Part shown: piece by piece, positions 2,813 through 60,882 of the stretch
Layout of the letters: the number at the start of each line of letters is the position of its first letter
How positions within the stretch are numbered: position 1 is the first letter of the stretch
Virus record (IMG/VR): IMGVR_UViG_2671180984_000014
DNA from: a virus
Lineage: Duplodnaviria > Heunggongvirae > Uroviricota > Caudoviricetes
DNA length: 64,000 nucleotides
Strand: one strand, 5' to 3'
Notes under the pieces: model-generated
Database searches by the model: none
What the model was told of the DNA's origin: nothing
What the model saw: only the letters and a program-made list of their open reading frames with translations
Position numbers and translations under genes: made by a program

Positions 2813-3652
2813 TCAGGCGTCGCTATCCAGCAACAAATCATCTGCGCGGGTGCGATCAAACGTAGGTGTCGCTTTCACAATAGTGCCACCAGGCGTTGCG
2901 GTGATCGGGGCGCTAATCGACGTAACTCCAGTAAGCGAAGTTGTATCCGAAGTTTCAAACCAGCAGAATGCTTTTTCGGTATCAGAAATCTCGTTCAAAG
3001 TGATCATGTCGGCCTGTTCATTTACAACAACCGACAAATAGAGCGTAAGCCCATCAAACACTATATGCAGTGGCAGTAGAGGCTTTACGAACTGATTAAA
3101 CTTTCTGAGAATTTCTTCTGTAATTGCGGACTGATCTATCGTGCCAGTAATACCCATTGTCCGGGCCAGGTCGTTTATGGGAATACTGATCATCCCTCTG
3201 GAAGTCAGAAACATCTCGCCGAATGTGCCGCCGGTAGTCTCCAATGTGCTTTCTGGTATTAGAACTGTGCCATAGGGATGACGCTCAAGGTCCACCGGTG
3301 CATATATCGGATCCCATAAAACAGAAATACCGTTAAATTCGCGGTAAATTGTCTGGTTTATAGGACGTTCAGTTCCCTTAAAGTGGATCTCATCAAGCCG
3401 CTGTTGTAACAACATCGGAACGGAAGATGAGTCCGAGGTTCTGATAGTAAAGAACTGGCCAAGTTCATTTGTCCTGGTCTCCAGATCCTCCTTGCTCATG
3501 GAGAAAATAGACTTCCGGTTGGTAATTCGCTCCAACCATGGGTCAACAAAGGTGTCCATCATTGACTGAACCAAATCAGCCAATGATTTATAGAGCAATG
3601 ACTTTTGCTTAGCTGATGTAAGCCGGTTATTAAACCAGGAACGCTGCATCAC
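2813..3652 (-). CDS. baseplate/tail assembly protein (279 aa)
   Basis: ORF in tail operon; start overlaps stop of upstream gene by 4 bp (translational coupling). Confidence 0.4.
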   Translation of the reverse strand: MMQRSWFNNRLTSAKQKSLLYKSLADLVQSMMDTFVDPWLERITNRKSIFSMSKEDLETRTNELGQFFTIRTSDSSSVPMLLQQRLDEIHFKGTERPINQTIYREFNGISVLWDPIYAPVDLERHPYGTVLIPESTLETTGGTFGEMFLTSRGMISIPINDLARTMGITGTIDQSAITEEILRKFNQFVKPLLPLHIVFDGLTLYLSVVVNEQADMITLNEISDTEKAFCWFETSDTTSLTGVTSISAPITATPGGTIVKATPTFDRTRADDLLLDSDA

Positions 3653-5082: not shown

Positions 5083-5438
5083 AGCACCACGTCCTGTGTG
5101 ATAGTTATATCCCTGATACGAATGGATATTTTCAACTTATCAAAAGCATCTCCCTCGGCTACTGACAAGCCAGAAATCGGTATGTCGGGTAAATCTACCG
5201 TCAGTTTTTGCAAAAGCATTGCCTCAACCGCAATTTGAACATGCGACAAGTTGGTCGGTTCGTGTTTAAACTGCGGTAAAACATTGCCCCATGACGGATC
5301 TCCGTATACCTCACCCTGATAAGTGTTTAGCCACTCATATAAACGAGCGCCCCAGGCCTCCTCCTGGGACTCATACGTTTTTACGCCGGATAACTCCAGC
5401 GTCAGTAAAGGATCAATTTCGTTATTGTTGGCCATCAA
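5079..5438 (-). CDS. small virion morphogenesis protein (119 aa)
   Basis: ORF coupled to the transglycosylase gene (4-bp overlap). Confidence 0.35.
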   Translation of the reverse strand: MMANNNEIDPLLTLELSGVKTYESQEEAWGARLYEWLNTYQGEVYGDPSWGNVLPQFKHEPTNLSHVQIAVEAMLLQKLTVDLPDIPISGLSVAEGDAFDKLKISIRIRDITITQDVVL

Positions 5439-8400
5439 TCAACTCTCGCGTAGTCATTCATCAACGGATCATCAATTGACAGTGGCACCGTGCGCATAAC
5501 GCCCGGTTGAGGCGTGCTGACCTTTACGACAGTTCCCTGGCCTTTCGCCGAGTCTTTGGTGTGCTCTTCAATCCTGGCAAGCAATGAGGTCATCTGCGCA
5601 AACAGCCGCTTCGTTTCACCATCAAGTGAAACGGTATTATCAGCCAACTGCATTGTCGGCTTGGCACCAGAACCGCCAAGGTCACTAATAACCTGCCCGT
5701 CTATCTGCATACGACCGGTTGGTTGCTGCAAATCGTTGGCGGCAGTCGTCACCTGGGGCGTGGAGTCTGGTTGAGGAGAATTATTTGAGCGCATTCCCCG
5801 GGCATTAATGAGTTTGTCATACAGTCCATCAATCCCCATTTGTGCGCCGAGCTGGTCAAAGTAACTTGAGTTGTTGGCCACCGGACGTGCCTCTTCAACT
5901 GGCATAGGTGTATCAACATACACATTGCCAGCTGCCGTTGCGGTTCCCCTTCCTCGTGCACGTTCTTCGAGGGTTCCCTGGACGACTTCCCGACGCATCC
6001 CCCGGCCATTCATGAATTTGTTGACCAGATCGTTAACGCCAACAGCATTGCCGATTTTGTCTACCAGACCGCCTTTCTCAAACGGGCTATCACCAGGGGT
6101 AAACGCCAGACCAGTAGACTGATCGATAACGGCGTTATCAGGCAGTGGTCCCCTCACTCCAAATTGCGCCCCACCCTGTGCTCCTGCCCCAGGTGTATAG
6201 ATTTCACCACCTAAATAGCGAGCACGATGAGTATTGACCTTGATCGCGTACTCACGGTTTTCTTTCGATAAGTCACCTGTGCCTTTTTTCCACTTATTAA
6301 TAGTGCCAAACCCAGCGTTATATGCAGTGATGGCCTCGTTTAAGTCTCCATTGGCTTGCTTCAGATACTTGCTCATGAGAAGAGCCGCAGCTTCTGCCGA
6401 TTTTTCCGGATTAAAAGAATCTTCCCGGGATAATCCAGTTTCCTCACGAGCAACGCTCGTAAACTGGAACATTCCGAGAGCGCCACCACTTAGCTTTCCA
6501 TTTGGTGATCTTGTAAGCGTAGATTTTGCGTTAGGATCACCACCAGATTCAGTTGCAGCGATCGCGTAAAGAGTACCTTCAGGAAGGCTATATTTATTCT
6601 CTAGTTCAGCAAAATACGGAGCCAACTTATCGAGATTTGCCTTACCTTCAGCGCCAAGACTTCCGACTTTTACATCCAAGTTGCCATTGTTGTAGGTATC
6701 CGCAGCTTTCTGAATGTCATTCCTAGTGCCAGTGGTATTAAGCGACGATGATGACGAGCTATTTTGACCAATAGCTTTATCAATTTTCTGCAACGCGCTA
6801 TTGCCCGTTTCTACGGCATTTGCATTGATAATCTGATTAGCAGTTTCTTTAACTGTTTTATTGCTATCTTTCGCCGTGTCCAGTGCCGCATTTATCACGC
6901 GGGTAACAATATTAGTCTGTTTGGCATCGGATTCAGTTTTAGAATCAGATGTCTCCTGGTGGCTATTAACCGGAGCTTTTAACTCTGGAGTGATTTCTTT
7001 CGCATTAGCCTCGCCGATCGGATTGGGTATTTTTGATACAATCATTGCCGCAGGGGTATTTTTAACGGCATCAACCGCTGCATCTAATGCTTTACCGGGT
7101 AAATTTTTAACCCCATCCCAAATATTACCAGCCGCCTCTTTAATGTGTTTCCCTGGGTTCTTAATGAAATCAATTGCACTATCAATTGCATCACTGAAAA
7201 CCTGTTTCAGGTTATCGACAGTAAAGAAGTCTTTGATGGCATCCAGCTTTTCAAGCAGCTTATTAGATGTATCGCTAAACCATGCTGAAACAGCATCACC
7301 AATCTTTGCTGTGTAATCATCGAACTTGGTAGAAATGGTGTCGCCAAGGTTAGAAATATATGTTTCTAAGTTGGTAATCCCACTATCAATGGCCTGGGCA
7401 ATACTTTCCGTCGAAAATGATTGCAACATATTGCCGATATCCTCAAATCCAAGTGATTTGAGAACCTCACCAATGGCGCTGCTAATACCAGATACCAGTC
7501 CCCCCATATCAAGAACATTAGCTAACGTATAAGCGGCTTTTTGCTGGAATGATGGATCTTGTCCTGATTTAAGCCCAAACGCTCGACGTTGCGCTTCTGT
7601 ATCATTCCAACCGGTTACCGCACCATAAATACCTCCAGCCACTGTGCCGACTAGGGGAATTGCGCGTAACGCCCCTTTACCAACTGCCTTTAATCCAAGT
7701 TTACCTGCTGCCCGGGCAGCCAAATCTCCGCCTTCATGAGCGAGAGTCTTCTTGCCACCACCGCGTAGCATTCCTACAAGTTTCTTTGCCCCCAGAGCGC
7801 CAAAAGCGAGTGCTCCAGCTTTTTTCAGCATGCCACGCCCCATTAACAACGACGCGACGCCACCGGCCCCCTTCCCTAACAGGCTAAATAGTTTGGACAG
7901 CAAGCCGCCCTTCTTTTTACCGGTGTTTTTGGCTATCTGATCAAGGGCACGGAGAATCTTGTCATTGCCCTCTTTAATTTCGCTGGTCTGCTCCTGAAGT
8001 TCCTGAACCGTCCGTTTTTGGGTGTTAACCTGAACGACATCGGCACTATTTTGCGATTTACGCCTAAAAAAACCTTTTCTACGGCTGTTATCGTCATTGC
8101 CACGAATCACATCGGCAATAGACTTTCTGGCACCATTAAGCGATCCACCAACTTCTTTTGATATCCCGCCAAGCTCCTTCCCTGCTGCCCACAATGGACC
8201 AGCAACGGCGTAACCTAACGCATCGACGGCACGAGTCTCTGAAGGGTTACCTATGCCTTCAGCTACTTTTGACAGTTTTTTTAATAAACCTGATTCAGCA
8301 TTTAGACGCTCATCATCCTCTTTTCGCCTGGCCTTTTCTGCTCGTTCAGCACGGGCATCTTCCGCTGCGGCCTTACTCCCTGACTTTCCAATAAAACGAC

Positions 8401-8857
8401 CACGCGCATCGCGTTGGTTTTGGCTTTTTTGCGCACCGCCTTTTTGACCGAACATTTCGCGAGCGTGTTCGGCTGCTTCGGTCCGTTGTGCCTTTACATC
8501 CTCTGGTATAGCCTTCCTGCGTCGTTTTTTACCCTTTTGTGTGGTTGATTTGGCCCGCTGTTCCTGTTGAGCAACATCTTCCTGAACTACACGAGAAACG
8601 TCCCCTAAATTAAGCCGTTTCATTGCGTCAACAATAGGGTCTACGGATGGCGCTTTGGCCACAAAGTCAGGCCGGGAATTTTCGATTGTGCGATTTAATG
8701 CCGACACGCTGCGAGAGACAGGATCAACAGTAGCAACTCGCCCCCCTTTCAAATCTTCAACAGCTTCCCGAATACCTGCAAGCTCTTCCAGCTCTTTTGC
8801 GCTGGCGGTTTCAACCGTCCTTATCACATCGTCAATGTTGGCGTTTTTTCTTTCCAT
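5435..8857 (-). CDS. sit: virion injection transglycosylase, 1140 aa, with soluble lytic transglycosylase domain
   Basis: SLT signature LPEGTLYAIAATESGGDPNAKS...GALGMFQF in the C-terminal third; N-terminal half Lys/Gly/Ala-rich low complexity; size and position match P1 Sit. Confidence 0.8.
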   Translation of the reverse strand: MERKNANIDDVIRTVETASAKELEELAGIREAVEDLKGGRVATVDPVSRSVSALNRTIENSRPDFVAKAPSVDPIVDAMKRLNLGDVSRVVQEDVAQQEQRAKSTTQKGKKRRRKAIPEDVKAQRTEAAEHAREMFGQKGGAQKSQNQRDARGRFIGKSGSKAAAEDARAERAEKARRKEDDERLNAESGLLKKLSKVAEGIGNPSETRAVDALGYAVAGPLWAAGKELGGISKEVGGSLNGARKSIADVIRGNDDNSRRKGFFRRKSQNSADVVQVNTQKRTVQELQEQTSEIKEGNDKILRALDQIAKNTGKKKGGLLSKLFSLLGKGAGGVASLLMGRGMLKKAGALAFGALGAKKLVGMLRGGGKKTLAHEGGDLAARAAGKLGLKAVGKGALRAIPLVGTVAGGIYGAVTGWNDTEAQRRAFGLKSGQDPSFQQKAAYTLANVLDMGGLVSGISSAIGEVLKSLGFEDIGNMLQSFSTESIAQAIDSGITNLETYISNLGDTISTKFDDYTAKIGDAVSAWFSDTSNKLLEKLDAIKDFFTVDNLKQVFSDAIDSAIDFIKNPGKHIKEAAGNIWDGVKNLPGKALDAAVDAVKNTPAAMIVSKIPNPIGEANAKEITPELKAPVNSHQETSDSKTESDAKQTNIVTRVINAALDTAKDSNKTVKETANQIINANAVETGNSALQKIDKAIGQNSSSSSSLNTTGTRNDIQKAADTYNNGNLDVKVGSLGAEGKANLDKLAPYFAELENKYSLPEGTLYAIAATESGGDPNAKSTLTRSPNGKLSGGALGMFQFTSVAREETGLSREDSFNPEKSAEAAALLMSKYLKQANGDLNEAITAYNAGFGTINKWKKGTGDLSKENREYAIKVNTHRARYLGGEIYTPGAGAQGGAQFGVRGPLPDNAVIDQSTGLAFTPGDSPFEKGGLVDKIGNAVGVNDLVNKFMNGRGMRREVVQGTLEERARGRGTATAAGNVYVDTPMPVEEARPVANNSSYFDQLGAQMGIDGLYDKLINARGMRSNNSPQPDSTPQVTTAANDLQQPTGRMQIDGQVISDLGGSGAKPTMQLADNTVSLDGETKRLFAQMTSLLARIEEHTKDSAKGQGTVVKVSTPQPGVMRTVPLSIDDPLMNDYARVD

Positions 8858-8938
8858 GATCTTATCGCCTACCGCTTCGGTTTAAGTTTTTCTTCCAGTT
8901 TCTCCAACAGGAAAAACGCATAGGATTCAGTGAGCCTT

Positions 8939-9820
8939 TCAGCGTCCTGAATCGGTATACCCCCATACAAAACCAGGTTGGACACTAAGGTCTGATAGCT
9001 TTTCAATCCCCACCTGTGGAATGAAGTCGGTAGCCCGAAAGGGCACCCACAGACGGGTATACGCACCCTCTGTGGACTCCTTTTTATCCTGGTTTGGGCA
9101 TTTGTGCGGCGGGAGACGAAGACGCATTTCGCCTTTATCGATGTAGCACGGTAAACCATGTTCGAGCTTTTCATGAGCCAGTCGGATGTGTGCCGCCAGC
9201 TTCATAAATTCAGTATCAATGGCCATCCGTTTGATCGTTTCATAACGACGCTCAGCCTGCTCTTCACGAGTACCGCTAACATCGTTATAAAGTTCACACT
9301 GATAAGCGAATTCCCAAAAACGCAAATCAACGATCGCTTCTTTGAATTCCGCGTCGTCTTCAGGTGGCAATGCTGCACGGCGCATCTCCAGCATTTCCAT
9401 TGCCCAACCATCAAGCGGCACGATACGCCATTGATAAGGCACGCCCTCTACAGACACCTCAATATCGTCAATGAACGGTTCCACTTCCAGGACCTGGATA
9501 TCTTCAGCCAGAGCATTCATATCGCAATCGTAATAATGCTCTTTACCGCAATGTTTACAGGTGTAGGTGAATGTCTCGACCGGTGTTTCACGGGAGCCAG
9601 TAAATATCCACCATAACGCGGTAATCCGGTCCTGCGCCGTCCATGTCAGGGGATCATATTTCGCGGGTTCAGCCAGCAAGGCTTTTAAATACGCCGTTGT
9701 CTGTTGTTCTTGTTCCTCCGGTGTTATCGAGTTGAAACGCATCGCATCAGCAATATTTGGCTGACGGAACTGGATCAATTCAGTTGGCCGCGATGGTAGC
9801 GGGAAAAGAGGTAAAAGCAT
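8939..9820 (-). CDS. virion morphogenesis protein (293 aa) with CxxC pair
   Basis: ORF upstream of sit in same operon; CKHCGK motif. Confidence 0.35.
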   Translation of the reverse strand: MLLPLFPLPSRPTELIQFRQPNIADAMRFNSITPEEQEQQTTAYLKALLAEPAKYDPLTWTAQDRITALWWIFTGSRETPVETFTYTCKHCGKEHYYDCDMNALAEDIQVLEVEPFIDDIEVSVEGVPYQWRIVPLDGWAMEMLEMRRAALPPEDDAEFKEAIVDLRFWEFAYQCELYNDVSGTREEQAERRYETIKRMAIDTEFMKLAAHIRLAHEKLEHGLPCYIDKGEMRLRLPPHKCPNQDKKESTEGAYTRLWVPFRATDFIPQVGIEKLSDLSVQPGFVWGYTDSGR

Positions 9821-9834
9821 CCTTGCTCCTTAAT

Positions 9835-10446
9835 TCAAAGAGAAAAACTAAAGCCCAGAAGGGAAGCTAAAGAACTTGAGGATTGGTTAAACGTGCTGTG
9901 CAATGCGAAGGTCATTGGGAATGACTTAAATTCCGTAACCTGATCCCGCGCATAGGTGACATCGCCGGTAGTGACCGGGAATACCGTCATCTCATTTTCC
10001 AGTTTGGTTAAACCGGAGGACAGCAACCGATAAATACGCACATTGAGCAAATATTTAGACGGTATATTCCCGGTACCGTCCGGATTGATCACCCGACCTT
10101 TTGCCGTCTTAAACCAGTCCAAAACGAGGCCATCAACGGTATCCCTGACCATCATTGTTATCTGCCCAGGCGAACGCTCCGTTGGCTGAAGGATATTCCC
10201 TCCGCCTATTTTAATCGTTTCATATTCGATGCTGTAATCGTGGTAGGTAATGTCTTTGGCAAAGAAGTCTGCCCCCTCCAGACCATCAACTTCGACAGAG
10301 AACTGCCATCCTTGCGCGAACAGCATTTTGTTCATGATGATTGACGTCAGCTTACCAACTTCCCGCTCACCAACGCCGGAGCCAAATAATGTCGTCGTTA
10401 ATGCCGAAGATACATAAGACTTTACTGAAGCAACATTAAGCCCCAT
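9835..10446 (-). CDS. putative tail tube-like structural protein (203 aa)
   Basis: Size and position in tail operon; no motif-level proof. Confidence 0.3.
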   Translation of the reverse strand: MGLNVASVKSYVSSALTTTLFGSGVGEREVGKLTSIIMNKMLFAQGWQFSVEVDGLEGADFFAKDITYHDYSIEYETIKIGGGNILQPTERSPGQITMMVRDTVDGLVLDWFKTAKGRVINPDGTGNIPSKYLLNVRIYRLLSSGLTKLENEMTVFPVTTGDVTYARDQVTEFKSFPMTFALHSTFNQSSSSLASLLGFSFSL

Positions 10447-10456
10447 ATCAGCCCCC

Positions 10457-11080
<624 letters not shown>

Positions 11081-15174: not shown

Positions 15175-16020
15175 ATGCTGGCTAAAGTCACTTTCCTGAG
15201 CTGTATAACGATGAGCGATTTTACTTTTTCTGGCTATGAATTGGCCTGCTTTGTAACACACTCCGGTCTATCCCGTAGCGCCGGGCATATCCTGTCGCAA
15301 TGTGCAAATCTCGCGGCAACAACCAGTGAATACTTCATTCACAAGCCTCACCGCCTGATCGCGGCAGAAACTGGTTATAGCCAATCAACCGTCGTTCGTG
15401 CATTCCGTGAAGCTGTAAACAAAGGAATCCTGTCAGTAGAGATTGTTATCGGCGATCACCGTGAACGTCGCGCTAACCTGTACCGGTTTACACCATCCTT
15501 TTTGGCCTTCGCACAACAAGCAAAAAATGCGCTGATTGAAAGCAAATTAAAGATCTCTTCAGCGGCAACCAAGGTTAAAGCTGTTCTCGCTAAGACATTG
15601 GCTTTATTTAATTTTTTATCCACACCCCCATGTCAAAATGATACCCCCTCCCCCTGTCAGGATGACGTGGCAATAAAGAATAAGAAGTCACAATTTAAAA
15701 AAACAAAAAGATCAGTTTCCGGCGCTGCCGGAACGACCAAACTCAAAAAATTGACTTCATGGATCGCTGAGGCAAAAGCAAAGGCTGACAATCTGCGGTT
15801 ATCCAAAAAACGCGCTCAAAAACATGAGTTCAAGCAGAAAGTAGAGGCGGCAGCGCGGAAATATGCTTACCTGAAGAACAAGCGTTCTCCTGATATTGGC
15901 GGGGTATCAAACTTCGATAATCTGCCGCATTGCATGACGGTAAACGAAGCTCTTAATGCGGTTTTAGCCAAAAATAAAGATAACGAACAATGGGGTATAC
16001 CGGCAGGATTCAGAGGGTGA
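15175..16020 (+). CDS. repL: RepL lytic-replicon initiator (281 aa)
   Basis: Position directly after kilA, basic C-terminal half, size as P1 RepL. Confidence 0.65.
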   Translation: MLAKVTFLSCITMSDFTFSGYELACFVTHSGLSRSAGHILSQCANLAATTSEYFIHKPHRLIAAETGYSQSTVVRAFREAVNKGILSVEIVIGDHRERRANLYRFTPSFLAFAQQAKNALIESKLKISSAATKVKAVLAKTLALFNFLSTPPCQNDTPSPCQDDVAIKNKKSQFKKTKRSVSGAAGTTKLKKLTSWIAEAKAKADNLRLSKKRAQKHEFKQKVEAAARKYAYLKNKRSPDIGGVSNFDNLPHCMTVNEALNAVLAKNKDNEQWGIPAGFRG

Positions 16021-16769: not shown

Positions 16770-17279
16770 TTAATCCCACTCAATCCAGTTGTAGACGATA
16801 CGAAGTGACGGGCGCACAGCGGCAGTCACATCTTCGGTACTAAAGTCGATTGCATCACTGTAGATTTTGCAGTCCAACATTTCAATTGTTGTAGCAGCTT
16901 TTGTCACAGCGTTAACCCCGGAAGATTTGGATTCAGGGGTAGCAGCCATCGTGATATCAACATAGTCCTTCGCCGCAATGCGATCCTTGATGAACTGAAG
17001 AATATCGCCTTCGATAGTCTCCACGCACTGGACCTGGATTTCCCCAGAGTTTCGAATTGGTCCGTGCTGGTTGAACTTCACACCATTCGGACCATAGTCC
17101 TCCACATCCTCGCGGGTCATTTCAGGAATTTGCGACGTGCGAACCAGTACGCTGATATCTTCATGGCCTGCAACAGTGAGCTGGAATTCAGAAGATACCA
17201 GTCGTTCGCCTTTGGCCGCGTTGGCAGTATAGCGGCCCTTAATAAATTTACGGTTTCCCTTAGTGTTATTGTGCCCCAT
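16770..17279 (-). CDS. virion structural protein (169 aa), possibly tail tube-like
   Basis: Last gene of the sheath-containing operon. Confidence 0.35.
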   Translation of the reverse strand: MGHNNTKGNRKFIKGRYTANAAKGERLVSSEFQLTVAGHEDISVLVRTSQIPEMTREDVEDYGPNGVKFNQHGPIRNSGEIQVQCVETIEGDILQFIKDRIAAKDYVDITMAATPESKSSGVNAVTKAATTIEMLDCKIYSDAIDFSTEDVTAAVRPSLRIVYNWIEWD

Positions 17280-17290
17280 ATAAAATCCTT

Positions 17291-17872
17291 TTACTGGAAC
17301 GCCCGAACAATATCGGAGCTGTTATATATCGAAGAACCGGTCAACTGGAGGTTGACGGTGTTTTTCAGGAAATGCCCATTGCTGTCCCTGGGCGCATCGA
17401 GATCGAAACTTATGTCCTGGATAGCGACATCAATGATGTTGATCTGGCGACCAATGTTTAGCGTCACACGCTCCGGGATTCGACCACCAATACTGGCATC
17501 TTTAAGTTCCGGGCTAATCATCGCTGACAATGCGGCGATAGCTCCTGAAACCTCCGTGAATGGATCAAACAAAGCGATGAAAGTTACTGGCAGCGTGAAA
17601 GTTGGCGGTGTTCCCCCCTCCCAAACCATTAAGCTGTTCCAACGGGCCACCGACGTTGTTTCAGTACCAACCTGCGCAAAACCACTGAAGGCACCAGCAA
17701 CAGACCCCATGGACATACCGGTAAACGGCGCTTCCCAATTCTGGGCCATGTTCATTGCTGCCCCCTGGCTGATATATCCGGTAACCTGGTACTGAGAGTT
17801 CGTTAAAGTAACTTTCAGAAATGGCGATACACCGTCAGCCTGGCTGTAAACCCCATAAGGTATAGGTGCCAT
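17291..17872 (-). CDS. virion structural/baseplate protein (193 aa)
   Basis: ORF in same operon. Confidence 0.35.
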   Translation of the reverse strand: MAPIPYGVYSQADGVSPFLKVTLTNSQYQVTGYISQGAAMNMAQNWEAPFTGMSMGSVAGAFSGFAQVGTETTSVARWNSLMVWEGGTPPTFTLPVTFIALFDPFTEVSGAIAALSAMISPELKDASIGGRIPERVTLNIGRQINIIDVAIQDISFDLDAPRDSNGHFLKNTVNLQLTGSSIYNSSDIVRAFQ

Positions 17873-17907
17873 TCAAGTTAAAGGCCGGAGTTCTCCGGCC
17901 TCCTCCT

Positions 17908-18723
17908 TTAGCCAAGGCGCTTACGGCGCAGTTTCATTGACTTTTTGCGGGCAAGTTTTGCCGCACCCGTCTGGGCTTTTCGACGCGCTTTTTTCAGCGC
18001 CGATTTTTGAGCCGCAGTCAGACGTTTTTTACGCAGGCGTTTACGGATGAGTTTGATCTCACCGTTACGAACAACCTTCTTAAATGCTTCAGTCAGCATT
18101 TCATCAGAAGTGCCAGCAACAACAAACGCCGCTTCCAGTTCGTCACGGTCGTCGCTATCTAAACCAGCGATAGAGGCACCAACATCAGCAGCTGCGTCGT
18201 CGTCTTCATCGTCAGCCAGTGCTTCGATCAGGTCATCATCTACACCGCATGCTGCGAGGAAGTCAGCAACATTTGCCCATGCTTCGTTATAGGCATCGTC
18301 CTGTTCTTCTGTAACTTCGGAGTCGTCGTCATCAGAGATACCAGCGATAGCCTGAACGAAACCATCAAGGGAGTCGAAAGTCAGATCACCGCTATCAGCC
18401 CAGGCGAAAACGGCGTCGGCCGCATCACTCAACGCATTCTGCATAGCACTTCTATTTGCAGCTTCCAGAATCATCTGGTGCGCCTGTTCGACGGTCCATT
18501 CTTTACCGTCTTTCCCTTCCAGGATTTGCTCAGGAGCCGGGGCAGATGGAACGTTATCGTTAGTCTGTGCCGCCGGTTCCGGATTATTATTAATAACCGG
18601 ATCTGTTGGCTGTTCGGCGCTTGCTCGGGCAGACTCCATCAGCTGCACAGGATCAGAGTTCAAAGCGAAACGAGACAGTCCATTCCCCAAAAATGCCCCG
18701 GATTGAAAAAAGTTTTTGCTCAT
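17908..18723 (-). CDS. acidic-then-basic virion protein (271 aa)
   Basis: Asp/Glu-rich core followed by Lys/Arg-rich C-terminus. Confidence 0.35.
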   Translation of the reverse strand: MSKNFFQSGAFLGNGLSRFALNSDPVQLMESARASAEQPTDPVINNNPEPAAQTNDNVPSAPAPEQILEGKDGKEWTVEQAHQMILEAANRSAMQNALSDAADAVFAWADSGDLTFDSLDGFVQAIAGISDDDDSEVTEEQDDAYNEAWANVADFLAACGVDDDLIEALADDEDDDAAADVGASIAGLDSDDRDELEAAFVVAGTSDEMLTEAFKKVVRNGEIKLIRKRLRKKRLTAAQKSALKKARRKAQTGAAKLARKKSMKLRRKRLG

Positions 18724-18732
18724 TGTATTCCC

Positions 18733-20322
18733 TTACTTAATAAGCAGCGGTACGCCCTGGATACGACGGGCTACGCCAGTCGGGCAGCAGGCCCAGACTA
18801 CTTCCCATTTATCGAATTCCGCCTGCGTAACTTTCAGCACATACGGTTCTGTACCGTCAGCATCAGGATCACGAGGAGCCACCAGAGCGCCGGAGGCGAC
18901 AAAGCGATCTAAAAGTTTGGTCATCCCTTTAGTCAGGCCAGCCGCAGTAATACCGTCCGGGCTATGCTTCATCTGTCGGGCTAACTGGACAAAGAAACGG
19001 CTGATTGCATTCATCAGGGATGGGACGTGCTGGAAGTGCAGATAGTTATCCTGCGTGCAGCAAGTTAAAGCATCGTCGATGATCATCTGGCCAGAGGTGC
19101 CAACAGATACTTTATTGAGACGGCCCTTGACCATTGCTTCTTCGTCCGGGGTATCTTCCGGATACAGCGGTTGAATTGACGCACGAGCAATGACGGCACG
19201 TTCTTCACCAGCCGGTGAGTAATGCCAACCGCCGACATCAGAGTTTTTCTTGACGCCACGAGCTTTCGCCGCATACGCCACGCCAGACAGACCAAAGACC
19301 ACACGGGATTGGGTCCATTTGTCTTTGCAGGAGAACGGGTAGTGATAGACAGCACAGCTTACATAATCGGTACCAAGTAAACCGGTATCTTCAACAGCAG
19401 AGAGCGCTTCCGTATACGTCAATGTCGGTTTGACATCAAAGAAGCCATCAATCAGGCGATCAGAACAGATATTACCTAACGCGGTGATCGCCGCATTGTC
19501 ATAGCAACCCAGGCCGAGAACAGCGGTGTACATGTACGGCGCATTGTTCAGCACCTTAACCGCACGCAGGTACGCAGCGGTTGAGATTTTCGACTGATCA
19601 CCGTTGGTACCACCAGTGAACGCCAGCGATTTTTTATTTGTTACTTTCGCCGTCGAAATCAGCTCTTCATTAACAACCGCGCGCAGATATTTAGAACGGG
19701 CTTCCAGAGCCGTAGGCAGATAACACAAGCGGCCCATGTCATCTTTCGCTTCTTCCGCCAAAGACACAGTGTGTGTCTCCAGGGTCGTTACCACGCCGAG
19801 CGAAGTCGTCTGGGTCAGTTTTAAGAGGAAGCGTTCATTACCCGCGCTGTCCGCTGTTGCCGTTTCGATGGTTAACTCACGGGTAGGTGAAATACACGGA
19901 TCACCATCATCAACGTAGATAGCAAAGGCTTCGCCACTATCAAGTTCAATTTCAGAACCGTATGGCAACGCACTGTAAGCCGGTTCGCCTGATTCATCGA
20001 ACATAATAATCGGGAACTTCGCATCATCCGGAACAGCACGAACAACATAACCTGACGTTTGCTGAATAGCTTCGTATACATGGCGAATTGGTTCGAACTG
20101 TGAGCCGGAAGACGGCTTCAGCGGTTCGCCGAGAACATCTTTGTAATTGGACTCAGTAACCGCAAGAACAGTAAACGGCTTGCCACGCGCAAATACGCCA
20201 ATACCAGCCCACAAGCTGCTATTTAATGCAACACCGGTAGATAACGTCGCATCGGCATTGATCGGGCTAACCGCGACGCCGGATGCATTACCTAATGACT
20301 GTTGAATTGAATATTGAGACAT
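18733..20322 (-). CDS. putative contractile tail sheath protein (529 aa)
   Basis: Size and position next to the capsid gene; assignment by synteny (P1 gene 22 position). Confidence 0.4.
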   Translation of the reverse strand: MSQYSIQQSLGNASGVAVSPINADATLSTGVALNSSLWAGIGVFARGKPFTVLAVTESNYKDVLGEPLKPSSGSQFEPIRHVYEAIQQTSGYVVRAVPDDAKFPIIMFDESGEPAYSALPYGSEIELDSGEAFAIYVDDGDPCISPTRELTIETATADSAGNERFLLKLTQTTSLGVVTTLETHTVSLAEEAKDDMGRLCYLPTALEARSKYLRAVVNEELISTAKVTNKKSLAFTGGTNGDQSKISTAAYLRAVKVLNNAPYMYTAVLGLGCYDNAAITALGNICSDRLIDGFFDVKPTLTYTEALSAVEDTGLLGTDYVSCAVYHYPFSCKDKWTQSRVVFGLSGVAYAAKARGVKKNSDVGGWHYSPAGEERAVIARASIQPLYPEDTPDEEAMVKGRLNKVSVGTSGQMIIDDALTCCTQDNYLHFQHVPSLMNAISRFFVQLARQMKHSPDGITAAGLTKGMTKLLDRFVASGALVAPRDPDADGTEPYVLKVTQAEFDKWEVVWACCPTGVARRIQGVPLLIK

Positions 20323-25768: not shown

Positions 25769-26710
25769 TTATGGATTGCGCTTATGGATCTGAAAGCCGA
25801 TTTTCCTGCCGTTTTTTATCTCTGAAAATTTAAGATATTCAATAGCTTCCAAATCTTTCATGGCTTTTCTGATAACGCTATTTTGCACGCTAACGGATGA
25901 TTTGAGATTAAGCCTTGCTCTAAGGCGCTCAATGCTGACAGGTGCCGGGTTGGCGGGTAGAGCCTCAAAGAATGTATACAGTACCTTGGCCGTCTCTTTG
26001 CGCCCGAGCTTATCCAGCATCTTCAGCTTCAGGATTCGCTTATAGTCAACATAGTAAAGTTCAGATAGCTGTTTCTGCGGCTGGATCTCGATAACATCAA
26101 GCTCGGTATTCAGGCTGCTATATGCCAACAAGTTGACGTTAATGTTATTGAGATGACCTTTTGCCGCCGGGAAGCGGAATTTGACAACTGTCTGCTGAAT
26201 GCGTGTCAGAGAGTCATCAATACTTTTACGGAACGCCTTTGAAAGGCGCTTACGTGGATAGCCGCATCGATCGGCAAACTCGGAGAATGGCAGGGTGATT
26301 ATGCCGTCATCATCAGGTGCGTAGTCAAACAACGCGGAGGTTATGCCCACCCACACCTTAAAATCAGTATCCATATCCAGGCGTGGACCATGAATTTCAA
26401 TTCCCTCATAGCCTTCCTGCTCAACAATTTTGAGGCTTGATAGTTCTTCGGTTGCGTTCGTTGTGTTTGTAGTAACTGACGATCCGCGACGTAGTGCCAC
26501 ATTGGTAGATTTTAAGGTTGGCACAAACACACCTAAGCGCAACAAAGCAATGGGTTGTATAGTGCTATTGTTATTGGGTTTCAGGCTGTGGATTTCTCCT
26601 GTATTTCCTGCAACTTCTTCAACGCTAAGGAAGCCTTTATTTTCTTCCAGCATCGTGGTTTCTCCATATGTGGCGCGGCCTGGCGTCATCTGGATTGCAG
26701 TTATCAACAA
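25769..26710 (-). CDS. repA: iteron-binding replication initiator RepA
   Basis: Rep-family initiator (LRLGVFVP, GPRLDMDTDFKVWVGI) flanked by iterons; start may be an internal Met. Confidence 0.8.
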   Translation of the reverse strand: MLITAIQMTPGRATYGETTMLEENKGFLSVEEVAGNTGEIHSLKPNNNSTIQPIALLRLGVFVPTLKSTNVALRRGSSVTTNTTNATEELSSLKIVEQEGYEGIEIHGPRLDMDTDFKVWVGITSALFDYAPDDDGIITLPFSEFADRCGYPRKRLSKAFRKSIDDSLTRIQQTVVKFRFPAAKGHLNNINVNLLAYSSLNTELDVIEIQPQKQLSELYYVDYKRILKLKMLDKLGRKETAKVLYTFFEALPANPAPVSIERLRARLNLKSSVSVQNSVIRKAMKDLEAIEYLKFSEIKNGRKIGFQIHKRNP

Positions 26711-26730
26711 CTGTGAATAGTCAGGCTCTA

Positions 26731-26834
26731 AAATCGCGTACAGTCAATGTTTCTGTCGCATATAGTCAACAATAAATCGCGTGCAGTCAACAATAAATCG
26801 TGCACAGTCAACATAAAATCGCGTATAGTCAATG
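26731..26834. repeat. origin iterons (incC-like), five ~21-bp direct repeats
   Basis: AAATCGCGTRYAGTCAACAAT x5; DnaA-box-like TTATCAACA at 26701-26709. Confidence 0.7.
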
Positions 26835-26986
26835 TTGATCCCATTTCAGGCCAGAAATGGCGCGGCTTACAGCGATCCGGGATCTTCTTTGGATCTTCCT
26901 GGGTTCTCTTTAGGATCTGTTTATTGGATCTATGCTGTGGATAAGTTGAATAAACCGGCCAACATAGCCGGTTGGAAGGAAGGGTA

Positions 26987-27379
26987 TTATTCTACGCTTT
27001 CGATAAGAAGACCATGTTCATAACATTTAAGCTCATCGCCTTCGTACAGGAATTGGTATCCAATACCACCATTTTCATGGACATTAGGGAATAACTCATA
27101 ACTCACTGAAGAGCAAATCACACCAATGCAGCGATCAACGCCTTCTCGTTCTTCAGTGCTGAAAAAATCCTCTTCGGTAAGAACATGAGTACATTGCTCA
27201 TCAGCATAGGTCGGAAATACATGCTCGATGCAATCCGGGTGTTTTAAACCAAGCTGATCGGCAAGCTCGAAAGCATGACGGTATTGTTCAGATCCTGGCT
27301 TGCCAACAGTGATGTGCTCAATTTTGTAAATTGAAGTCGCTTTGTTGATAGTTTGCTTTACTGTTACTTTATCAGACAT
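26987..27379 (-). CDS. hypothetical protein (130 aa)
   Basis: ORF. Confidence 0.35.
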   Translation of the reverse strand: MSDKVTVKQTINKATSIYKIEHITVGKPGSEQYRHAFELADQLGLKHPDCIEHVFPTYADEQCTHVLTEEDFFSTEEREGVDRCIGVICSSVSYELFPNVHENGGIGYQFLYEGDELKCYEHGLLIESVE

Positions 27380-27390
27380 AAAAATCCCTT

Positions 27391-27642
27391 TTAGTTACCG
27401 CTGATAGCGCGGTTGTAATCATTAACGTTGCGATTCTTCCTGTTAATCCCCATCAGCATCGTTTCTGTATCGAGGATATACGCTGGCAGATCATCAAAAT
27501 ATTCACTGCTAAACTCTGGCATCCTGCACATAAACGCACTTTTGGGGGCAGGGTGGTTAACCTTTGTCGGCGTCGGCGTTAAATTCGCTGATCGACTCCC
27601 GGAGCAACCGCTGAGTGTCAGCAGGAATGCGCTGGCGAACAT
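27391..27642 (-). CDS. outer-membrane lipoprotein, o-spanin (Rz1)-like
   Basis: Lipobox LTLSGC, Pro-rich mature part (TPTPTKVNHPAPK); start overlaps 3' end of 27557-28006 in another frame. Confidence 0.45.
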   Translation of the reverse strand: MFASAFLLTLSGCSGSRSANLTPTPTKVNHPAPKSAFMCRMPEFSSEYFDDLPAYILDTETMLMGINRKNRNVNDYNRAISGN

Positions 27643-28006
27643 TACCCGCCGCAACCAGTTGTTTCTGAACTTCAGCTTTTCGTTCCATTTGCCTGTCAGC
27701 ATATTTGGCTTGTTCTGATTCATTTTTCACTTCCTGGCTGTGAAAATGTTGCTCTGCTTTGTTCATCGTCTCAATGGTCTGGTTAAGATCCATTATTGAC
27801 TTATCACGTTCCTTAACAGCCTGATCAAGACTGCCAATTTTCTCCATGGCTTGCTTTAGCTGATGACGTTCCCATGCAAACCCAGCACCAACAAGTGCGC
27901 AAATCAGAACAAGAACACCAGTAGCAGCAAGTTTCTCCTTCAAAGACAAAGCTGTTTTTAACGTAGAAAAGAATGACATGTCTTCCTCCTGAAGAAAAAT
28001 TATCAA
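27557..28006 (-). CDS. i-spanin (Rz)-like: N-terminal TM helix plus coiled coil
   Basis: TM segment ATGVLVLICALVGAGFAW then charged coiled-coil region. Confidence 0.4.
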   Translation of the reverse strand: MIIFLQEEDMSFFSTLKTALSLKEKLAATGVLVLICALVGAGFAWERHQLKQAMEKIGSLDQAVKERDKSIMDLNQTIETMNKAEQHFHSQEVKNESEQAKYADRQMERKAEVQKQLVAAGNVRQRIPADTQRLLRESISEFNADADKG

Positions 28007-28018
28007 TGAAGTCCTTTG

Positions 28019-28807
28019 TTACCGTGCCGCTTTGTTTAATTCATCAAGAACAGAATCAGGAACCAAAGCGGCGACTGCGCTGGCTGTGCTGGCCTTATTT
28101 GCTGATGCTTCCGCAAGCGCGGTACCGATAGCATGGTTATAAGCAGTTATGGCTACGTTGGCGCTTTCATTCGCTCGTTCATACTGCTGTTGTAACGCAG
28201 TTGTGGGTGCTGTTGTCTGGTTGAAAACAACCCCAAACTGTTCAGTTGCTACTTTCAGAGATTCAATTTGCTCTTCTGTTAGTGCTGGTGGGGGAGTGGC
28301 AGTGCCGCCGCCTGAACCAGAGCCTGACGAGCTTTCTGAGCCAGTGTTAAGGGCCTGGTTAATCTCCCCCATTGCAGCGACTAAACTTGATGTATTAAGC
28401 GCGTTAACAGCGTCCTCAAGCGATTTAGTAATATTCACATCACCAATGGCAATAGAGATCGGCAGTTCTGAAACTTCTCGCTCATTAGCACGGCAGTAAA
28501 CATCCCAACCAATATCGAGTTGAAGCAGCATTGACAGATCTGCATAACCAGCCAACAGGTCCGCGTGCTTAGTTGCCAGTTCTCCAATGTTCGTTAAGCC
28601 GGTTGTGGTTGTTCTGATCGTTGAAACATAGCTGGTAATAGTGTCGGGATAGACAATTGTATCCAGAATTAATCCGGTCAATTCTTCTGCAAGCAGTTTT
28701 GCTGTGTTAGCACTGTTTCGTGCCGATGTTATGGCACCAGGTGTTTTCATCCCACCGGCGGCGGCCAATTTTTTATATGCGGATAACTGGTAGTCTTTTT
28801 CCAACAT
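28019..28807 (-). CDS. hypothetical protein (~262 aa)
   Basis: Track ORF 28019-28864 trimmed to internal Met (MLEKDYQ...) to avoid overlap with upstream gene. Confidence 0.3.
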   Translation of the reverse strand: MLEKDYQLSAYKKLAAAGGMKTPGAITSARNSANTAKLLAEELTGLILDTIVYPDTITSYVSTIRTTTTGLTNIGELATKHADLLAGYADLSMLLQLDIGWDVYCRANEREVSELPISIAIGDVNITKSLEDAVNALNTSSLVAAMGEINQALNTGSESSSGSGSGGGTATPPPALTEEQIESLKVATEQFGVVFNQTTAPTTALQQQYERANESANVAITAYNHAIGTALAEASANKASTASAVAALVPDSVLDELNKAAR

Positions 28808-28815
28808 GATATCTC

Positions 28816-29100
28816 CTAACTTACCTGAACCAGGCCGTCTCCGGACGCTACGGTAGATCCGCATGAAACAGGGTCACCAACGCATACGATCCCTTTACCA
28901 TTGACGGTAAACCATGCCCTGGTTGATATAGCTTGCCCACCGTGCGTACTGTTTCCATCGGTATGCTGTGCATATTGCTTACCATCAACTAACACTTCGA
29001 CTCCGTTGACTTTAAGTAGTGGTTCACTCTCTACAGGAGGCCTGGATGGGAATCCTCCGTGCCCCGAACAAATGCTGTCTTTTGTTGCAATGCTTGCCAC
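28816..29100 (-). CDS. PAAR-like small spike-tip protein (94 aa)
   Basis: Motifs SGHGG, THGG and VCVGDPVSCGS typical of PAAR-repeat proteins. Confidence 0.4.
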   Translation of the reverse strand: MASIATKDSICSGHGGFPSRPPVESEPLLKVNGVEVLVDGKQYAQHTDGNSTHGGQAISTRAWFTVNGKGIVCVGDPVSCGSTVASGDGLVQVS

Positions 29101-29181
29101 GCCATCACCAATTATTTGCTCTGATTTTCGTTATTTTAACTTAGGTTATTTGTGGTCTGTATGGCGTTTACTTATCGCAAA

Positions 29182-29198
29182 ATTGCTCTAATAAATAT
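29182..29198 (+). promoter_or_regulatory. C1-type operator (ATTGCTCTAATAAATAT) in divergent promoter region
   Basis: 15/17 match; precedes the hrdC-dmt operon. Confidence 0.65.
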
Positions 29199-29269
29199 TG
29201 TTTTTTATGTCGTATTTTCGGTACCATTCAGCCATCGCCCTTCAATGGGCATTTGTTTGGAGTCGTCAG

Positions 29270-29554
29270 ATGCAGATGGAGCTAATAAGCCGCAAAGAGT
29301 TCGATAGCCGTGTAACCAGCGGTGAACTCGACAACTTGCAGGCTATCAAGGTGAAAGAAGGCTTTTGCCTCATTGGGAATCAGAGCGGAATAAATCGCGT
29401 TTTTATGCTTCGCCGTACGGATTTGAAGCCATTTGTCTGGAAGAACGAAATTGGTCCCAGCTCATACGCTCAAACGAGGGGGTGCCACAACCTGGCCTTT
29501 TTCTACAAAGACGAGCTTTCTGTGGTTGATATTCAAGGGTTACAACATGTTTAA
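29270..29554 (+). CDS. small protein upstream of the rdgC homolog (~94 aa)
   Basis: Internal Met of track ORF 29198-29554; start uncertain. Confidence 0.3.
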
Positions 29555-30452
29555 GCACTGGAAAAACATTACTATTTATAAACTTTCTCGTGAGGCGGAT
29601 CTGACCGACTTAGAAGATAAAAAGAAAATGATCCTTTTCACGCCATGCGGTAGTCAGGATATGGCCAAGTTCGGTTTTGTATCGCCATTTGGTGATAATT
29701 CTGAAGTTATCGCTATGCATGGAAATGGTTTTATCCTTGTTGAAGCAAAGCGCGAAACAAAAATTCTTCCCCCGCCGGTTATCCAGCGAGCTATTCAAGA
29801 AAAAATTGAAAAACTTGAGCAAGAACAAGCGCGTAAACTGAAGAAAACAGAGAAGGACTCCCTGAAAGACGAAGTTCTGCATTCTCTTCTGCCACGGGCT
29901 TTTTCAAAGTTTTCTGTTATCCAGGCGATCTACGACGGTTCAACTAAACGTATCTATATCAATGCCAGCGCGCGGCAGGCAGAGGATATGCTCGCGCTTA
30001 TGCGTAAGTCTCTGGGTTCTCTTCCTGCTGTTTCCCTGAGTGTTGAAAATCCCATTGAATTAACGCTGACCGACTGGGTACGTGATGGTAGTGCTCCACA
30101 GGGATTTCAAATGGGGGATGCGGCAGAACTTAAGGCAGTGCTTGAGGATGGCGGTATTGCCCGAGTGAAAAAGCAGGATTTGGGAAGCGATGAAATTTCC
30201 ACACACCTGGAAGCTGGCAAGCTCGTCACTAAGTTGGCACTCGACTGGCAGAACCGCATTAAATTTACACTGGACCATAACTTCAGCCTTACCAGCGTCA
30301 AATTTGCGGATGAATTGCTTGAGCAGAACTCTGATATTGATAGTGAAGATGTTGCGCAGCGACTGGACGCAGATTTCTTCCTGTTGACCAGTGAAATTTC
30401 GTGCCTGGTTGATGCTCTGGTAAATGCCCTTGGCGGAGAGGCTAAGCAGTGA
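29547..30452 (+). CDS. hrdC: RdgC homolog (recombination-associated protein)
   Basis: [16 protein letters not shown]...[15 protein letters not shown]...[30 protein letters not shown] aligns along full length with E. coli RdgC; start set at internal ATG 29547. Confidence 0.8.
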
Positions 30453-33400
30453 AAGAGCTGTGCTATGGATCTGTTTGCAGTGGAATTGAAGCCGCGAGTA
30501 TTGCCTGGGAACCGTTGGGTATGCGTCCGGCGTGGTTTGCTGAAATCGAGCCTTTTCCATCGGCCGTTCTTGCGCTCCGCTGGCCCCATGTTGCCAACCT
30601 TGGCGACATGAAAAAACTTGCCAAAAAAGTCTTGGCTGGGGAAATCGAATCCCCTGACGTGCTCGTCGGGGGAACACCATGTTTTACCGCGGGGCATATG
30701 GTTCTTTGTAAAAATGGCTATAAACCAATAGAAAATGTTTGCCCTGGTGATTACGTAGTCAGTCATCTCGGGCGGTTACAACAAGTAAAAAGAGTTGGTT
30801 CAAAAATAGCTAATACGGGGTTACTTAATGCCGTTGGGCAGCCTTTAGGTATAAGAACAACCAATGACCATCCCTTCCTGGCTGTTCGGTGGAAAGCCCA
30901 AAACACCCGGAAAAATGGCACATATTTTAAGAGAGAGTTGTTGTCTGAACCGGAATGGCGAGCAGCATGTGATATGCCGGGATATCAATGGTGCGCTCTA
31001 ACTAATTTCAATATTGCATTTCCAGATATTTGTTCTCGGTTCTTGTCTGAAGAACAGGCTATGTATCTTGCGGGCGCTTATGTTGGCGATGGATATATTA
31101 GGAGATGGAGAGGTAAATCTAAGAAGGCGGTTGTTTTTGGCATAAATTGCCAGAAATTGAGAAAGTTTCATTGCCGCATACCAGAAAACATATTTTCCGT
31201 GGCAAGCGAAATCCGAGGGAGCATCAAAGTAACCTTGAATGATACGTGTTATGCCAATTGGCTTAATGAACATTTTGGCGAGTTAAGCCATGCTAAGCGT
31301 ATCCCTGCATGGGTGATGTCGCATCCATTGCGTCATGTGTTTTTACAAGGCTATCTTGATACTGATGGGACACCAAGTGGTAAAGCGGGATTTAGAATTA
31401 ATAGTGTTAGTTCTGCGCTTGCTTGGGGCGTTGCGGGGTTGTCACAGACTTGTGGTTATGTTTCTTCGGTCAGCTTTATTGAAGTTGAGCCCAAAAAAGT
31501 GATCGAGGATCGCGTGGTAAATCAACGGAATTATTATCAGGTAACAATCTGCCCGCAGAAATTGTCACGTAAATCAAGATTGGCTCATGGAATGCTTTTA
31601 CGAACAGTCAAAGAGTTTAAATCGGTAGGCCTAGATACTGTATACAACATAGAAGTCGAAGGTGATCATTCCTATATCCTCAATGGTGCGGTGGTCCATA
31701 ACTGTCAGGCATTCAGTATCGCGGGATTACGTGGTGGGCTTGATGATGAGCGTGGCGCGCTAACTTTAAAGTATGTGGAGCTTGCAAATGCAATTGACGA
31801 CAAACGGGCTGAGTCATTTCTCAAACCAGCCGTTATCGTCTGGGAAAATGTCCCAGGAGTCTTGTCATCGGCAGATAACGCCTTCGGATGTTTCCTTGCC
31901 GGATTGGCTGGAGAAGATGTGCCATTTGAACCAGGTGATCGACCTGAATCAGGAAAAAGCAACGCGTTCTGGCGGTGGGATGGCAAAACCGGTTGCCATG
32001 TTCCAAAGTGGCCGCAGTGTGGTTGTATTTATGGACCGCAGCGAAAAGTGGCCTGGAGAATCCTTGATGCCCAATACTTCGGAGTGGCACAACGACGCCG
32101 ACGCGTGTTTGTTGTCGCAAGTGCTCGAACAGATCTCGATCCCGCAACGGTACTTTTTGAGTTCGAAGGCGTGCGCCGGAATATTGCGCCGAGCAGAGGC
32201 GAGGGGAAGGAAACTACCAGATATACTTCAAACATCGCTATCAGAACTTGCGATGATACAAACATAATTGCCATGGCACATGGGCAAGGAGGGGCTGAGA
32301 TAAAAACCGATAATTCGGCACCAACTTTGACATGTAACCATGAAGCACCAATTGTATTGCTCGGCGACGGTAGAATGCGCCGTCTTACCCCTGTCGAATG
32401 TGAAAGGCTGCAAGGTTTTCCTGATTGGCATACGTTGATCCCTACGGAAAAGCGTAAAAAAGTTAATTCAGATGAACTGGCATATCTGCACAATCACTAT
32501 CCAGATTTAAGCGAAGAAGAGGCCGCAATGCTTGCAGCTGACGGACCGCGTTACAAAGCGATCGGCAATAGTATGGCAATACCAGTAATGCGCTGGATTG
32601 GCGATCGGATTACTAAGGCCGTATGTCGGCAGAAAGAAGGAAGTGAAACAAAAGAGCGAAAAGTTAAACCAGCGGCAGAATTCGAACGGTCCATATTCAA
32701 ATGGGCTGGTGGAAAATTTGGTGTTCTGGAACAAATCTTTCGCTATTTGCCAGAAGGGAAGCGCCTGATTGAACCTTTCGTTGGTGGCGGAGCTGTCTTC
32801 ATGAATGCCGGATACCAGGAAAATCTGCTAAATGATGTGAATGCTGACCTGATTAACTTTTACAAGACTCTGCAACGCGAGGCGCATTCACTTATCACTC
32901 TGGCACATCGTTTCTTCCAGGACTACAACACACAGGAAGGATACCTGGCAGTACGGAATGCGTTTAACAAACAAGTCTATGATGATTTACATCGCGCAGC
33001 GGCGTTTTTGTTCCTGAACCGACATTGTTTTAACGGATTGACGCGTTACAACCAGGCCGGTGAGTTCAATGTCGGTTATGGGAAGTATAAAACTCCGTAT
33101 TTCCCATTACAGGAGATGGAAGCCTTCCTCGGTGCGGAAGGGCGGTCTGAGTTTGTATGCGGTGATTTTGCAGCGGTGATTGAAGCTGCCGGAGAAGGAG
33201 ATGTCATCTTTTGCGATCCGCCGTATGAACCGCTTCCAAATACAGAGGGATTCACGAACTATTCCGGTCATGACTTTAAGTTTGAAGAGCAAAAACGCCT
33301 GGTGTCTCTGTTGACGGATGCTCATCGTCGAGGTGCAAAGGTTCTCATTACTAACAGTGGCGCGCCAAACATCAGAGAGCTTTATCATGACAGTGGCTTC

Positions 33401-33490
33401 AGAGTGGAACCTCTTTTTGCCAGACGTTCTGTGTCTTGTAAGGGGGACACTCGAGGTGTAGCTCATGACGTTTTGGGTATATTGCTCTAA
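30449..33490 (+). CDS. dmt: bifunctional DNA methyltransferase: N-terminal C5-cytosine MTase (intein-interrupted) fused to C-terminal Dam-like N6-adenine MTase
   Basis: GTG start overlapping hrdC stop; C5 motifs GGTP|[22 protein letters not shown]; Dam motifs KWAGGK and DPPY. Confidence 0.8.
30680..31702 (+). other. intein (341 aa) with LAGLIDADG homing-endonuclease core inside dmt
   Basis: Begins Cys ([20 protein letters not shown]), block [19 protein letters not shown] and [10 protein letters not shown], ends [21 protein letters not shown] followed by Cys+1. Confidence 0.8.

Positions 33491-39119: not shown

Positions 39120-39120
<1 letters not shown>
39097..39120. terminator. bidirectional rho-independent terminator between convergent operons
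   Basis: Hairpin AGCCCGAACGCCGGGCT with T-runs on both strands. Confidence 0.6.
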
Positions 39121-42266
<3,146 letters not shown>

Positions 42267-60823: not shown

Positions 60824-60839
60824 TTGACATGTGACTTTC
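60824..60839 (+). promoter_or_regulatory. putative late-promoter element TTGACATGTGACTTTC before pacA
   Basis: Shares the GTGACTTTC core with the inverted repeat upstream of the capsid gene. Confidence 0.35.
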
Positions 60840-60882
60840 GTTACCCTCGCGTCAAAAAGAGTTTTTACGAAAGGAAGCATAA

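Follow-up and report, generated by a model that had tools for sequence, protein, structure and literature searches.

UpfC, a PAAR-like protein of a P1-like phage-plasmid, and its place in the genome

The upfC locus

The window analyzed here is the whole 64,000-nucleotide stretch of viral DNA (Caudoviricetes). Megablast of positions 26500-31000 returned 99.9% identity to Escherichia phage vB_EcoM-Ro157c2YLVW and 95-98% identity to P1, P7, RCS47, and further P1-like phage-plasmids; P1 and the remainder of the window are collinear, from tail-fibre gene S through pacB. Window DNA shares 96-99.9% identity with P1 and P1-like phages, and the element is nearest to vB_EcoM-Ro157c2YLVW, not to reference P1. 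An earlier note, made from the sequence alone, had described a 94-aa protein at 28816-29100 as a PAAR-like spike-tip protein encoded away from the baseplate genes. The corresponding open reading frame was confirmed on the minus strand, in the following setting.

29182..29198, no strand assigned: C1 operator Odmt (Op68), ATTGCTCTAATAAATAT, from the annotation of the homologous P1 position
28816-29100, minus strand: upfC, an ORF of 94 codons running from a GTG start to a TAG stop, encoding MASIATKDSICSGHGGFPSRPP...GDPVSCGSTVASGDGLVQVS
28019..28807, minus strand: upfB, 262 aa from the ATG at 28807 (P1 annotation; phrog_1559)
27557..27979, minus strand: ppfA, an Rz-like inner-membrane spanin (P1 annotation; phrog_89, E 1.5e-25)
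27391..27723, minus strand: mlp, an Rz1-like lipoprotein (outer-membrane spanin), the 'membrane lipoprotein precursor' of P1 (phrog_30284, E 2.2e-77)
26987..27379, minus strand: upfA (phrog_1453), the final gene of the leftward string
26959..26975, minus strand: terminator-like hairpin and T run just past upfA, from a consensus scan only

Odmt lies in the divergent upfC/uhr intergenic region and is part of Pdmt, which is on the plus strand. The start given for ppfA is that of the P1 annotation (the mechanical ORF reaches 28006), and mlp is partly embedded in ppfA in a different frame. The genes are closely spaced: an AGGAG overlaps the upfC stop codon (TAG, 28816-28818), which is followed at a distance of 8 nt by the upfB ATG at 28807. 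A longer upfB ORF of 281 aa (28019-28864), which overlaps upfC by 49 nt, is used in the AF234172 annotation. The ATG at 28807 has AGGAG directly upstream, the phrog_1559 match begins at residue 20 of the 281-aa ORF, and the position agrees with the starts of the homologues in three diverged relatives (L007, L010, and L012, see below); it is thus probably the start of upfB, and the 281-aa ORF is probably too long.

In the reference P1 record the ORF of interest is annotated as upfC, with the function given as 'unknown' and a remark that aa 10-93 are 31 pct identical to aa 10-96 of the T4 ORF5.4 product. P1 upfC has the same length, the same GTG start, and the same location between upfB and the Odmt operator. 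A sequence search of the PDB identified the protein as UpfC (9vyi_A; 93/94 residues identical, E 1.7e-60), chain A of entry 9VYI, 'Cryo-EM structure of bacteriophage P1 baseplate'. The sole difference is at residue 86, which is alanine in P1 UpfC (AAQ14038; 9VYI chain A) and serine in the window protein. We found 71 UpfC homologues, nearly all of exactly 94 aa.

PAAR fold, metal site, and partner spike

The reading of UpfC as a PAAR-like spike tip is supported by its sequence, its fold, its metal ligands, and the solved P1 baseplate structure. The motifs reported earlier are all present (SGHGG at aa 12-16, THGG at aa 52-55, and GDPVSCGS at aa 75-82); the tetrapeptide P-A-A-R itself does not occur in UpfC. 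A profile search, which had been suggested as a check, matched UpfC to PHROG 281 'PAAR motif' over residues 1-93 (E 2e-30). The Pfam PAAR_motif profile covered residues 51-91 only (E 8.5e-6); at 26.4 bits, this match is 0.6 bits under the gathering threshold of 27. A PF05488 match is precomputed for most UpfC homologues. When phmmer was run against the PDB, UpfC matched a baseplate chain of the Klebsiella phage KP1 (9f4b, E 4.8e-10), T4 gp5.4 (5iv5, 4ku0; E 8.6e-8, about 1e-7), and the Vibrio type VI secretion (T6SS) PAAR protein VCA0105 (4jiv, E 3.7e-4).

Structure prediction, which had likewise been proposed, agreed: the AlphaFold2 model of UpfC is all-beta, with a pLDDT of 96.5, and adopts the PAAR fold. 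Foldseek searches of the PDB with this model gave TM values of 0.95 for 9VYI, 0.92 for the KP1 tip, 0.88 for VCA0105 (4jiv_D), 0.87 for both T4 gp5.4 (4ku0_D) and the T6SS protein c1882 (4jiw_D), and 0.69 for phiKZ gp163.1. All five matches with E <= 0.001 were PAAR or spike-tip proteins, as was the sixth, and every non-PAAR match had E >= 0.24.

Four residues, H14, H46, H53, and C80, are invariant in 23 aligned UpfC homologues, down to 40% identity, and align with the three histidines and one cysteine of gp5.4 and VCA0105. Together with His46, the SGHGG, THGG, and GDPVSCGS motifs supply the three histidines and one cysteine of the predicted metal site in the PAAR cone. In gp5.4 the tetrahedral metal (Fe) site is required for folding and spike binding (PMC12407873), and we infer that UpfC also holds a bound metal.

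Several known tips can be compared with UpfC. T4 gp5.4 (4KU0, 5IV5) is likewise a PAAR monomer (~95 aa) with a 3-His + 1-Cys site that sits on a trimeric gp5 beta-helix, and it is likewise dispensable for plaque formation; the two proteins are about 30% identical, and their GH..P, HT, THGG, and DP.SCG segments align. They form the sole T4-P1 tail-protein pair detectable by BLAST (PMC12407873, T4 spike-tip preprint). On the other hand, T4 gp5 carries a lysozyme domain that P1 gp5 lacks (PMC12810830), and no tripod like that attributed to UpfB is reported for T4. The best match outside P1 is the tip of KP1 (vB_Kpn_Lilla1; 9F4B chain BA), a protein of 97 aa with about 31% identity that carries the PDB label 'Phospholipase' and comes from a jumbo or T4-like baseplate context. 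The T6SS proteins VCA0105 (4JIV) and c1882 (4JIW), of family PF05488, also cap a trimeric beta-helical spike and share 14-22% identity with UpfC, the metal-ligand positions of VCA0105 being aligned with those of UpfC. Such T6SS proteins cap bacterial VgrG and often bear effector extensions, whereas UpfC caps a phage spike and bears none. Spikes of the P2 gpV type perform the same task with a pointed, metal-stabilised tip (PMC12407873), but their iron-loaded apex, with three HxH motifs, is fused into the trimeric spike, whereas the tip of P1 is a separate monomer.

The spike on which UpfC sits and the hub above it are encoded elsewhere in the window.

39120-39752, minus strand: gene 5, trimeric central spike with an OB domain and a beta-helix (annotation gp5; PMC12810830)
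39745..40761, minus strand: gene 6, trimeric baseplate hub above the spike (annotation; PMC12810830)

The Pfam Phage_base_V OB domain was detected in gp5 at 22.9 bits, just below the cut-off. The gp5 sequence contains a single histidine (H143) and no HxH, and its C-terminal end consists of beta-helix-like repeats; spikes with a C-terminal HxH apex have been proposed to have no separate tip (PMC12407873).

UpfC as a spike tip is already known: the P1 GenBank record notes the similarity to T4 ORF5.4, the role was predicted in 2022, and cryo-EM showed the protein in the virion in 2025-26. Its presence and position in the virion, like its dispensability, are taken here from these publications and not from our computations. 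Gonzales et al. (2022) used HHpred to equate UpfC with the spike tip gp5.4 of T4, reported that an upfC knockout leaves plaquing unaffected, and did not detect the protein by LC-MS/MS of purified P1 virions (PMC9024508), which the authors ascribed to its small size and single copy per virion. A genome-wide CRISPRi screen classed upfC, upfB, ppfA, and mlp as non-essential (PMC10695390), and upfC is among the 21 extremely conserved genes of 77 P1-like phage-plasmids (PMC9603915). Cryo-EM has since placed a UpfC monomer on the gp5 trimer (bioRxiv 10.1101/2025.07.21.665459; PLoS Pathog 2026, PMC12810830). The PLoS Pathog study also reported UpfB as three 'tripods', each a trimer, attached to the spike tip, an assignment made by fitting an AlphaFold3 model into a medium-resolution map (PMC12810830).

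Placement of upfC and its linkage to upfB

The tail and baseplate genes of the window fall into four blocks.

2813-11023: block 1, with gp16, bplA, pmgA, sit, pmgB, tub, and pmgC
16770-20322: block 2, with bplB, pmgG, 21, and 22
28019-29100: block 3, with upfB and upfC
39120-43871: block 4, with 5, 6, 24, 7, 25, and 26

The earlier note had set upfC apart from 'the baseplate block' at 39120-43871. That block does encode the spike and the hub (gp5 spike, gp6 hub, gp24 terminator, gp7 stopper, gp25, and the gp26 plug; annotation and PMC12810830), but it is a mixed operon and one of several such blocks rather than the only one. The gene had also been placed next to the spanin-like pair; in fact upfB intervenes between upfC and ppfA/mlp (27391-27979). 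As to the location having been called unusual, this holds against two comparisons: in T4, 5.4 is found in the region of baseplate genes 5 and 6 ('segC-Gp6 intergenic region'), and in a P2-like relative the homologue comes directly after the spike gene, whereas upfC is not adjacent to the spike gene and lies ~10 kb from it. In P1, this is the normal and long-annotated arrangement. The placement is largely explained by the pairing of upfC with upfB, its reported spike-tip partner, and the two form a conserved pair heading a compact leftward string, upfC-upfB-ppfA/mlp-upfA. We infer that these genes are co-transcribed, and it is possible that the hairpin at 26959..26975 ends the unit.

The P2-like relative is a myophage contig (L004), in which a PAAR homologue 43% identical to UpfC follows a Phage_base_V spike gene and precedes gpW/gp25, gpJ, and gpI. 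Resemblance of this spike to P1 gp5 was considered and rejected (E 0.05); the tip protein is conserved much better than the spike between P1 and this phage.

Linkage to upfB was seen in diverged P1-like elements, in which the PAAR protein is 56% (L007/L008), 62% (L010/L011), or 55% (L012/L013) identical to UpfC. Downstream of the PAAR gene these elements encode UpfB homologues of 24-29% identity (E 1e-17 to 1e-24). Three of the diverged relatives keep the two genes in tight linkage, and in a fourth they are one gene apart. In L007 and L010/L011 the PAAR stop codon overlaps the start of the UpfB homologue (TAATG and TGATG, respectively), and an Rz-like spanin gene lies downstream of the pair in L007 and L010, whereas in L012 the PAAR gene is separated from the UpfB homologue by a holin-like gene. 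The regions concerned are 6001-7546 in L007, 5001-6594 in L010, and 5001-6602 in L012. The flanking plasmid-maintenance genes (replication, partition) vary by lineage, and therefore the upfC-upfB pair, plus lysis genes, is a conserved module. This gene-order evidence supports, independently, a functional link between tip and tripod. Separately, a 226-aa gene in the Serratia-type L010 (4321-5001) ends exactly at the PAAR start codon and has no Pfam or PHROG match; it was rejected as a displaced spike gene, as it shows neither similarity to gp5 nor a PHROG match.

In order to search for promoters, we used a sigma-70 scan and a weight matrix built on eight late promoters annotated in P1 (consensus AAGTGACTT-N4-TAnAAT). 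Within the window the matrix recovered LPs, LPsit, the 22159 site upstream of gene 23, and LP26 at 17-22 bits. The top site upstream of upfC (29151..29133, AAATAACCT-aagt-TAAAAT) scored 10.4 bits, which is at chance level, such sites numbering 15 in the window vs 11.3 in shuffles. It falls below threshold in P1 c1-100, and none was found upstream of the PAAR genes of relatives. The site was accordingly rejected as evidence for an Lpa-dependent late promoter of upfC. The sigma-70 match at 29139..29111 is at chance level, and neither search yielded a credible promoter upstream of upfC. Elsewhere, the matrix gave sites of 14-15 bits at 42214..42196 (minus), 15193..15175 (minus), and 60829..60847 (plus), which exceed the chance range and lie under the well-established late promoters. 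A further, weak late-promoter-like site, also conserved in P1, is located between the stop codon of upfB and the start of ppfA (28017..27999, minus; AAAGGACTT-catt-GATAAT). At 10.6 bits it does not exceed chance, and it is only a hint of a possible separate promoter for the spanin genes.

Beyond Odmt, the Dmt methyltransferase gene (30449-33490, plus strand; 1013 aa) contains an intein-like insertion of 341 aa (aa 78-418, 30680-31702). The insertion begins with Cys and ends with His-Asn, matches Pfam LAGLIDADG_3 and Hint_2 internally, and is followed at +1 by the catalytic Cys of C5-methylase motif IV (GGTP|C...HN|CQAFS). It is exactly absent from Dmt of reference P1 c1-100; the DNA of Ro157c2YLVW, RCS47, and the laboratory P1 isolate OP279344 is collinear with the window across the insertion start, and the insertion therefore appears to be present there. 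Our literature search returned no description of it. Within well-conserved flanks, a short divergent stretch at ~32198-32353 (Dmt aa 584-635) takes the place of P1 aa 243-376, leaving the spliced protein ~82 aa shorter than P1 Dmt. This stretch may represent a swapped target-recognition region in the C5-methylase half.

Alternative explanations and proposed role

We conclude, with a probability of about 0.96, that the ORF at 28816-29100 is upfC of a P1-like phage-plasmid and encodes a PAAR-type tip that caps the gp5 spike. UpfC might instead be a bacterial T6SS component, either a VgrG cap or an effector adaptor, carried as plasmid-prophage cargo and not part of the virion. Some homologues indeed bear the JGI name 'uncharacterized Zn-binding protein involved in type VI secretion', and the fold of UpfC matches the T6SS proteins 4jiv_D and 4jiw_D. 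Nevertheless, the phage tips of T4 and KP1 are nearer to UpfC than the T6SS proteins are, the 94 aa of UpfC make up a minimal PAAR core lacking an effector extension or toxin domain, and none of the neighbourhoods examined contains T6SS genes, the neighbours in the window being phage and plasmid genes. Since upfC is moreover a conserved P1 core gene whose product has been seen on the phage spike (9VYI; PMC12810830), such an origin is extremely improbable.

Other readings would make UpfC a non-structural accessory or a lysis-associated protein, or an enzyme. The first draws on the category of PHROG 281 ('moron, auxiliary metabolic gene and host takeover'), on the non-detection of UpfC in the virion proteome (PMC9024508) and the non-essentiality of its gene (PMC9024508, PMC10695390), and, for lysis, on the holin-like gene inside the L012 pair and the Rz-like genes that come after the pair in L007, in L010, and in the window itself. 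It is very improbable all the same, given that cryo-EM density at the spike tip has been modelled as UpfC (PMC12810830; 9VYI), that its sequence has neither a signal peptide nor a membrane segment, and that the L004 homologue is located between the spike gene and gpW/J/I. The name 'alanine racemase', found in several NCBI records (homologues P0005, P0007, P0009, P0011, P0015, P0028, P0038, and P0042), has nothing behind it but the source names themselves. It can be discarded: UpfC is an all-beta PAAR cone of 94 aa with no match to a racemase family in Pfam or PHROGs. Both this name, which has propagated among records, and the 'moron' filing of PHROG 281 are annotation errors for a virion spike-tip protein.

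The mode of action of UpfC as the spike tip is as follows. A single 94-residue chain folds as a small pointed beta-cone, held near its apex by a metal ion predicted to be bound at His14, His46, His53, and Cys80. With its flat base the cone rests on the trimeric beta-helix of gp5, at the blunt end, and sharpens the central spike, which contraction of the tail sheath pushes through the outer membrane. In the laboratory, plaques form without the tip (PMC9024508), and by analogy with T4 gp5.4 UpfC probably improves fitness or permits infection of hosts with altered envelopes.

A broader proposal, which we put forward tentatively and consider rather unlikely, is that in P1-like phage-plasmids upfC-upfB and the spanin genes constitute a conserved, separately expressed 'envelope cassette', with tip and tripod acting as a conditional host-range or penetration module. 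Under this proposal, tip and tripod would, like T4 gp5.4, be required only on hosts with altered LPS or envelope. Their genes would be inherited along with those whose products break down this envelope at lysis, and their expression would depend on a promoter other than the known Lpa late type.

In summary, the analysis is of value for annotation, given that homologues are still named 'alanine racemase' or filed as 'moron' and that the start of upfB is often placed too early. For the biology of P1-like phage-plasmids, the conserved pairing of upfC with upfB offers independent comparative support for the recently proposed complex of spike tip and tripod.
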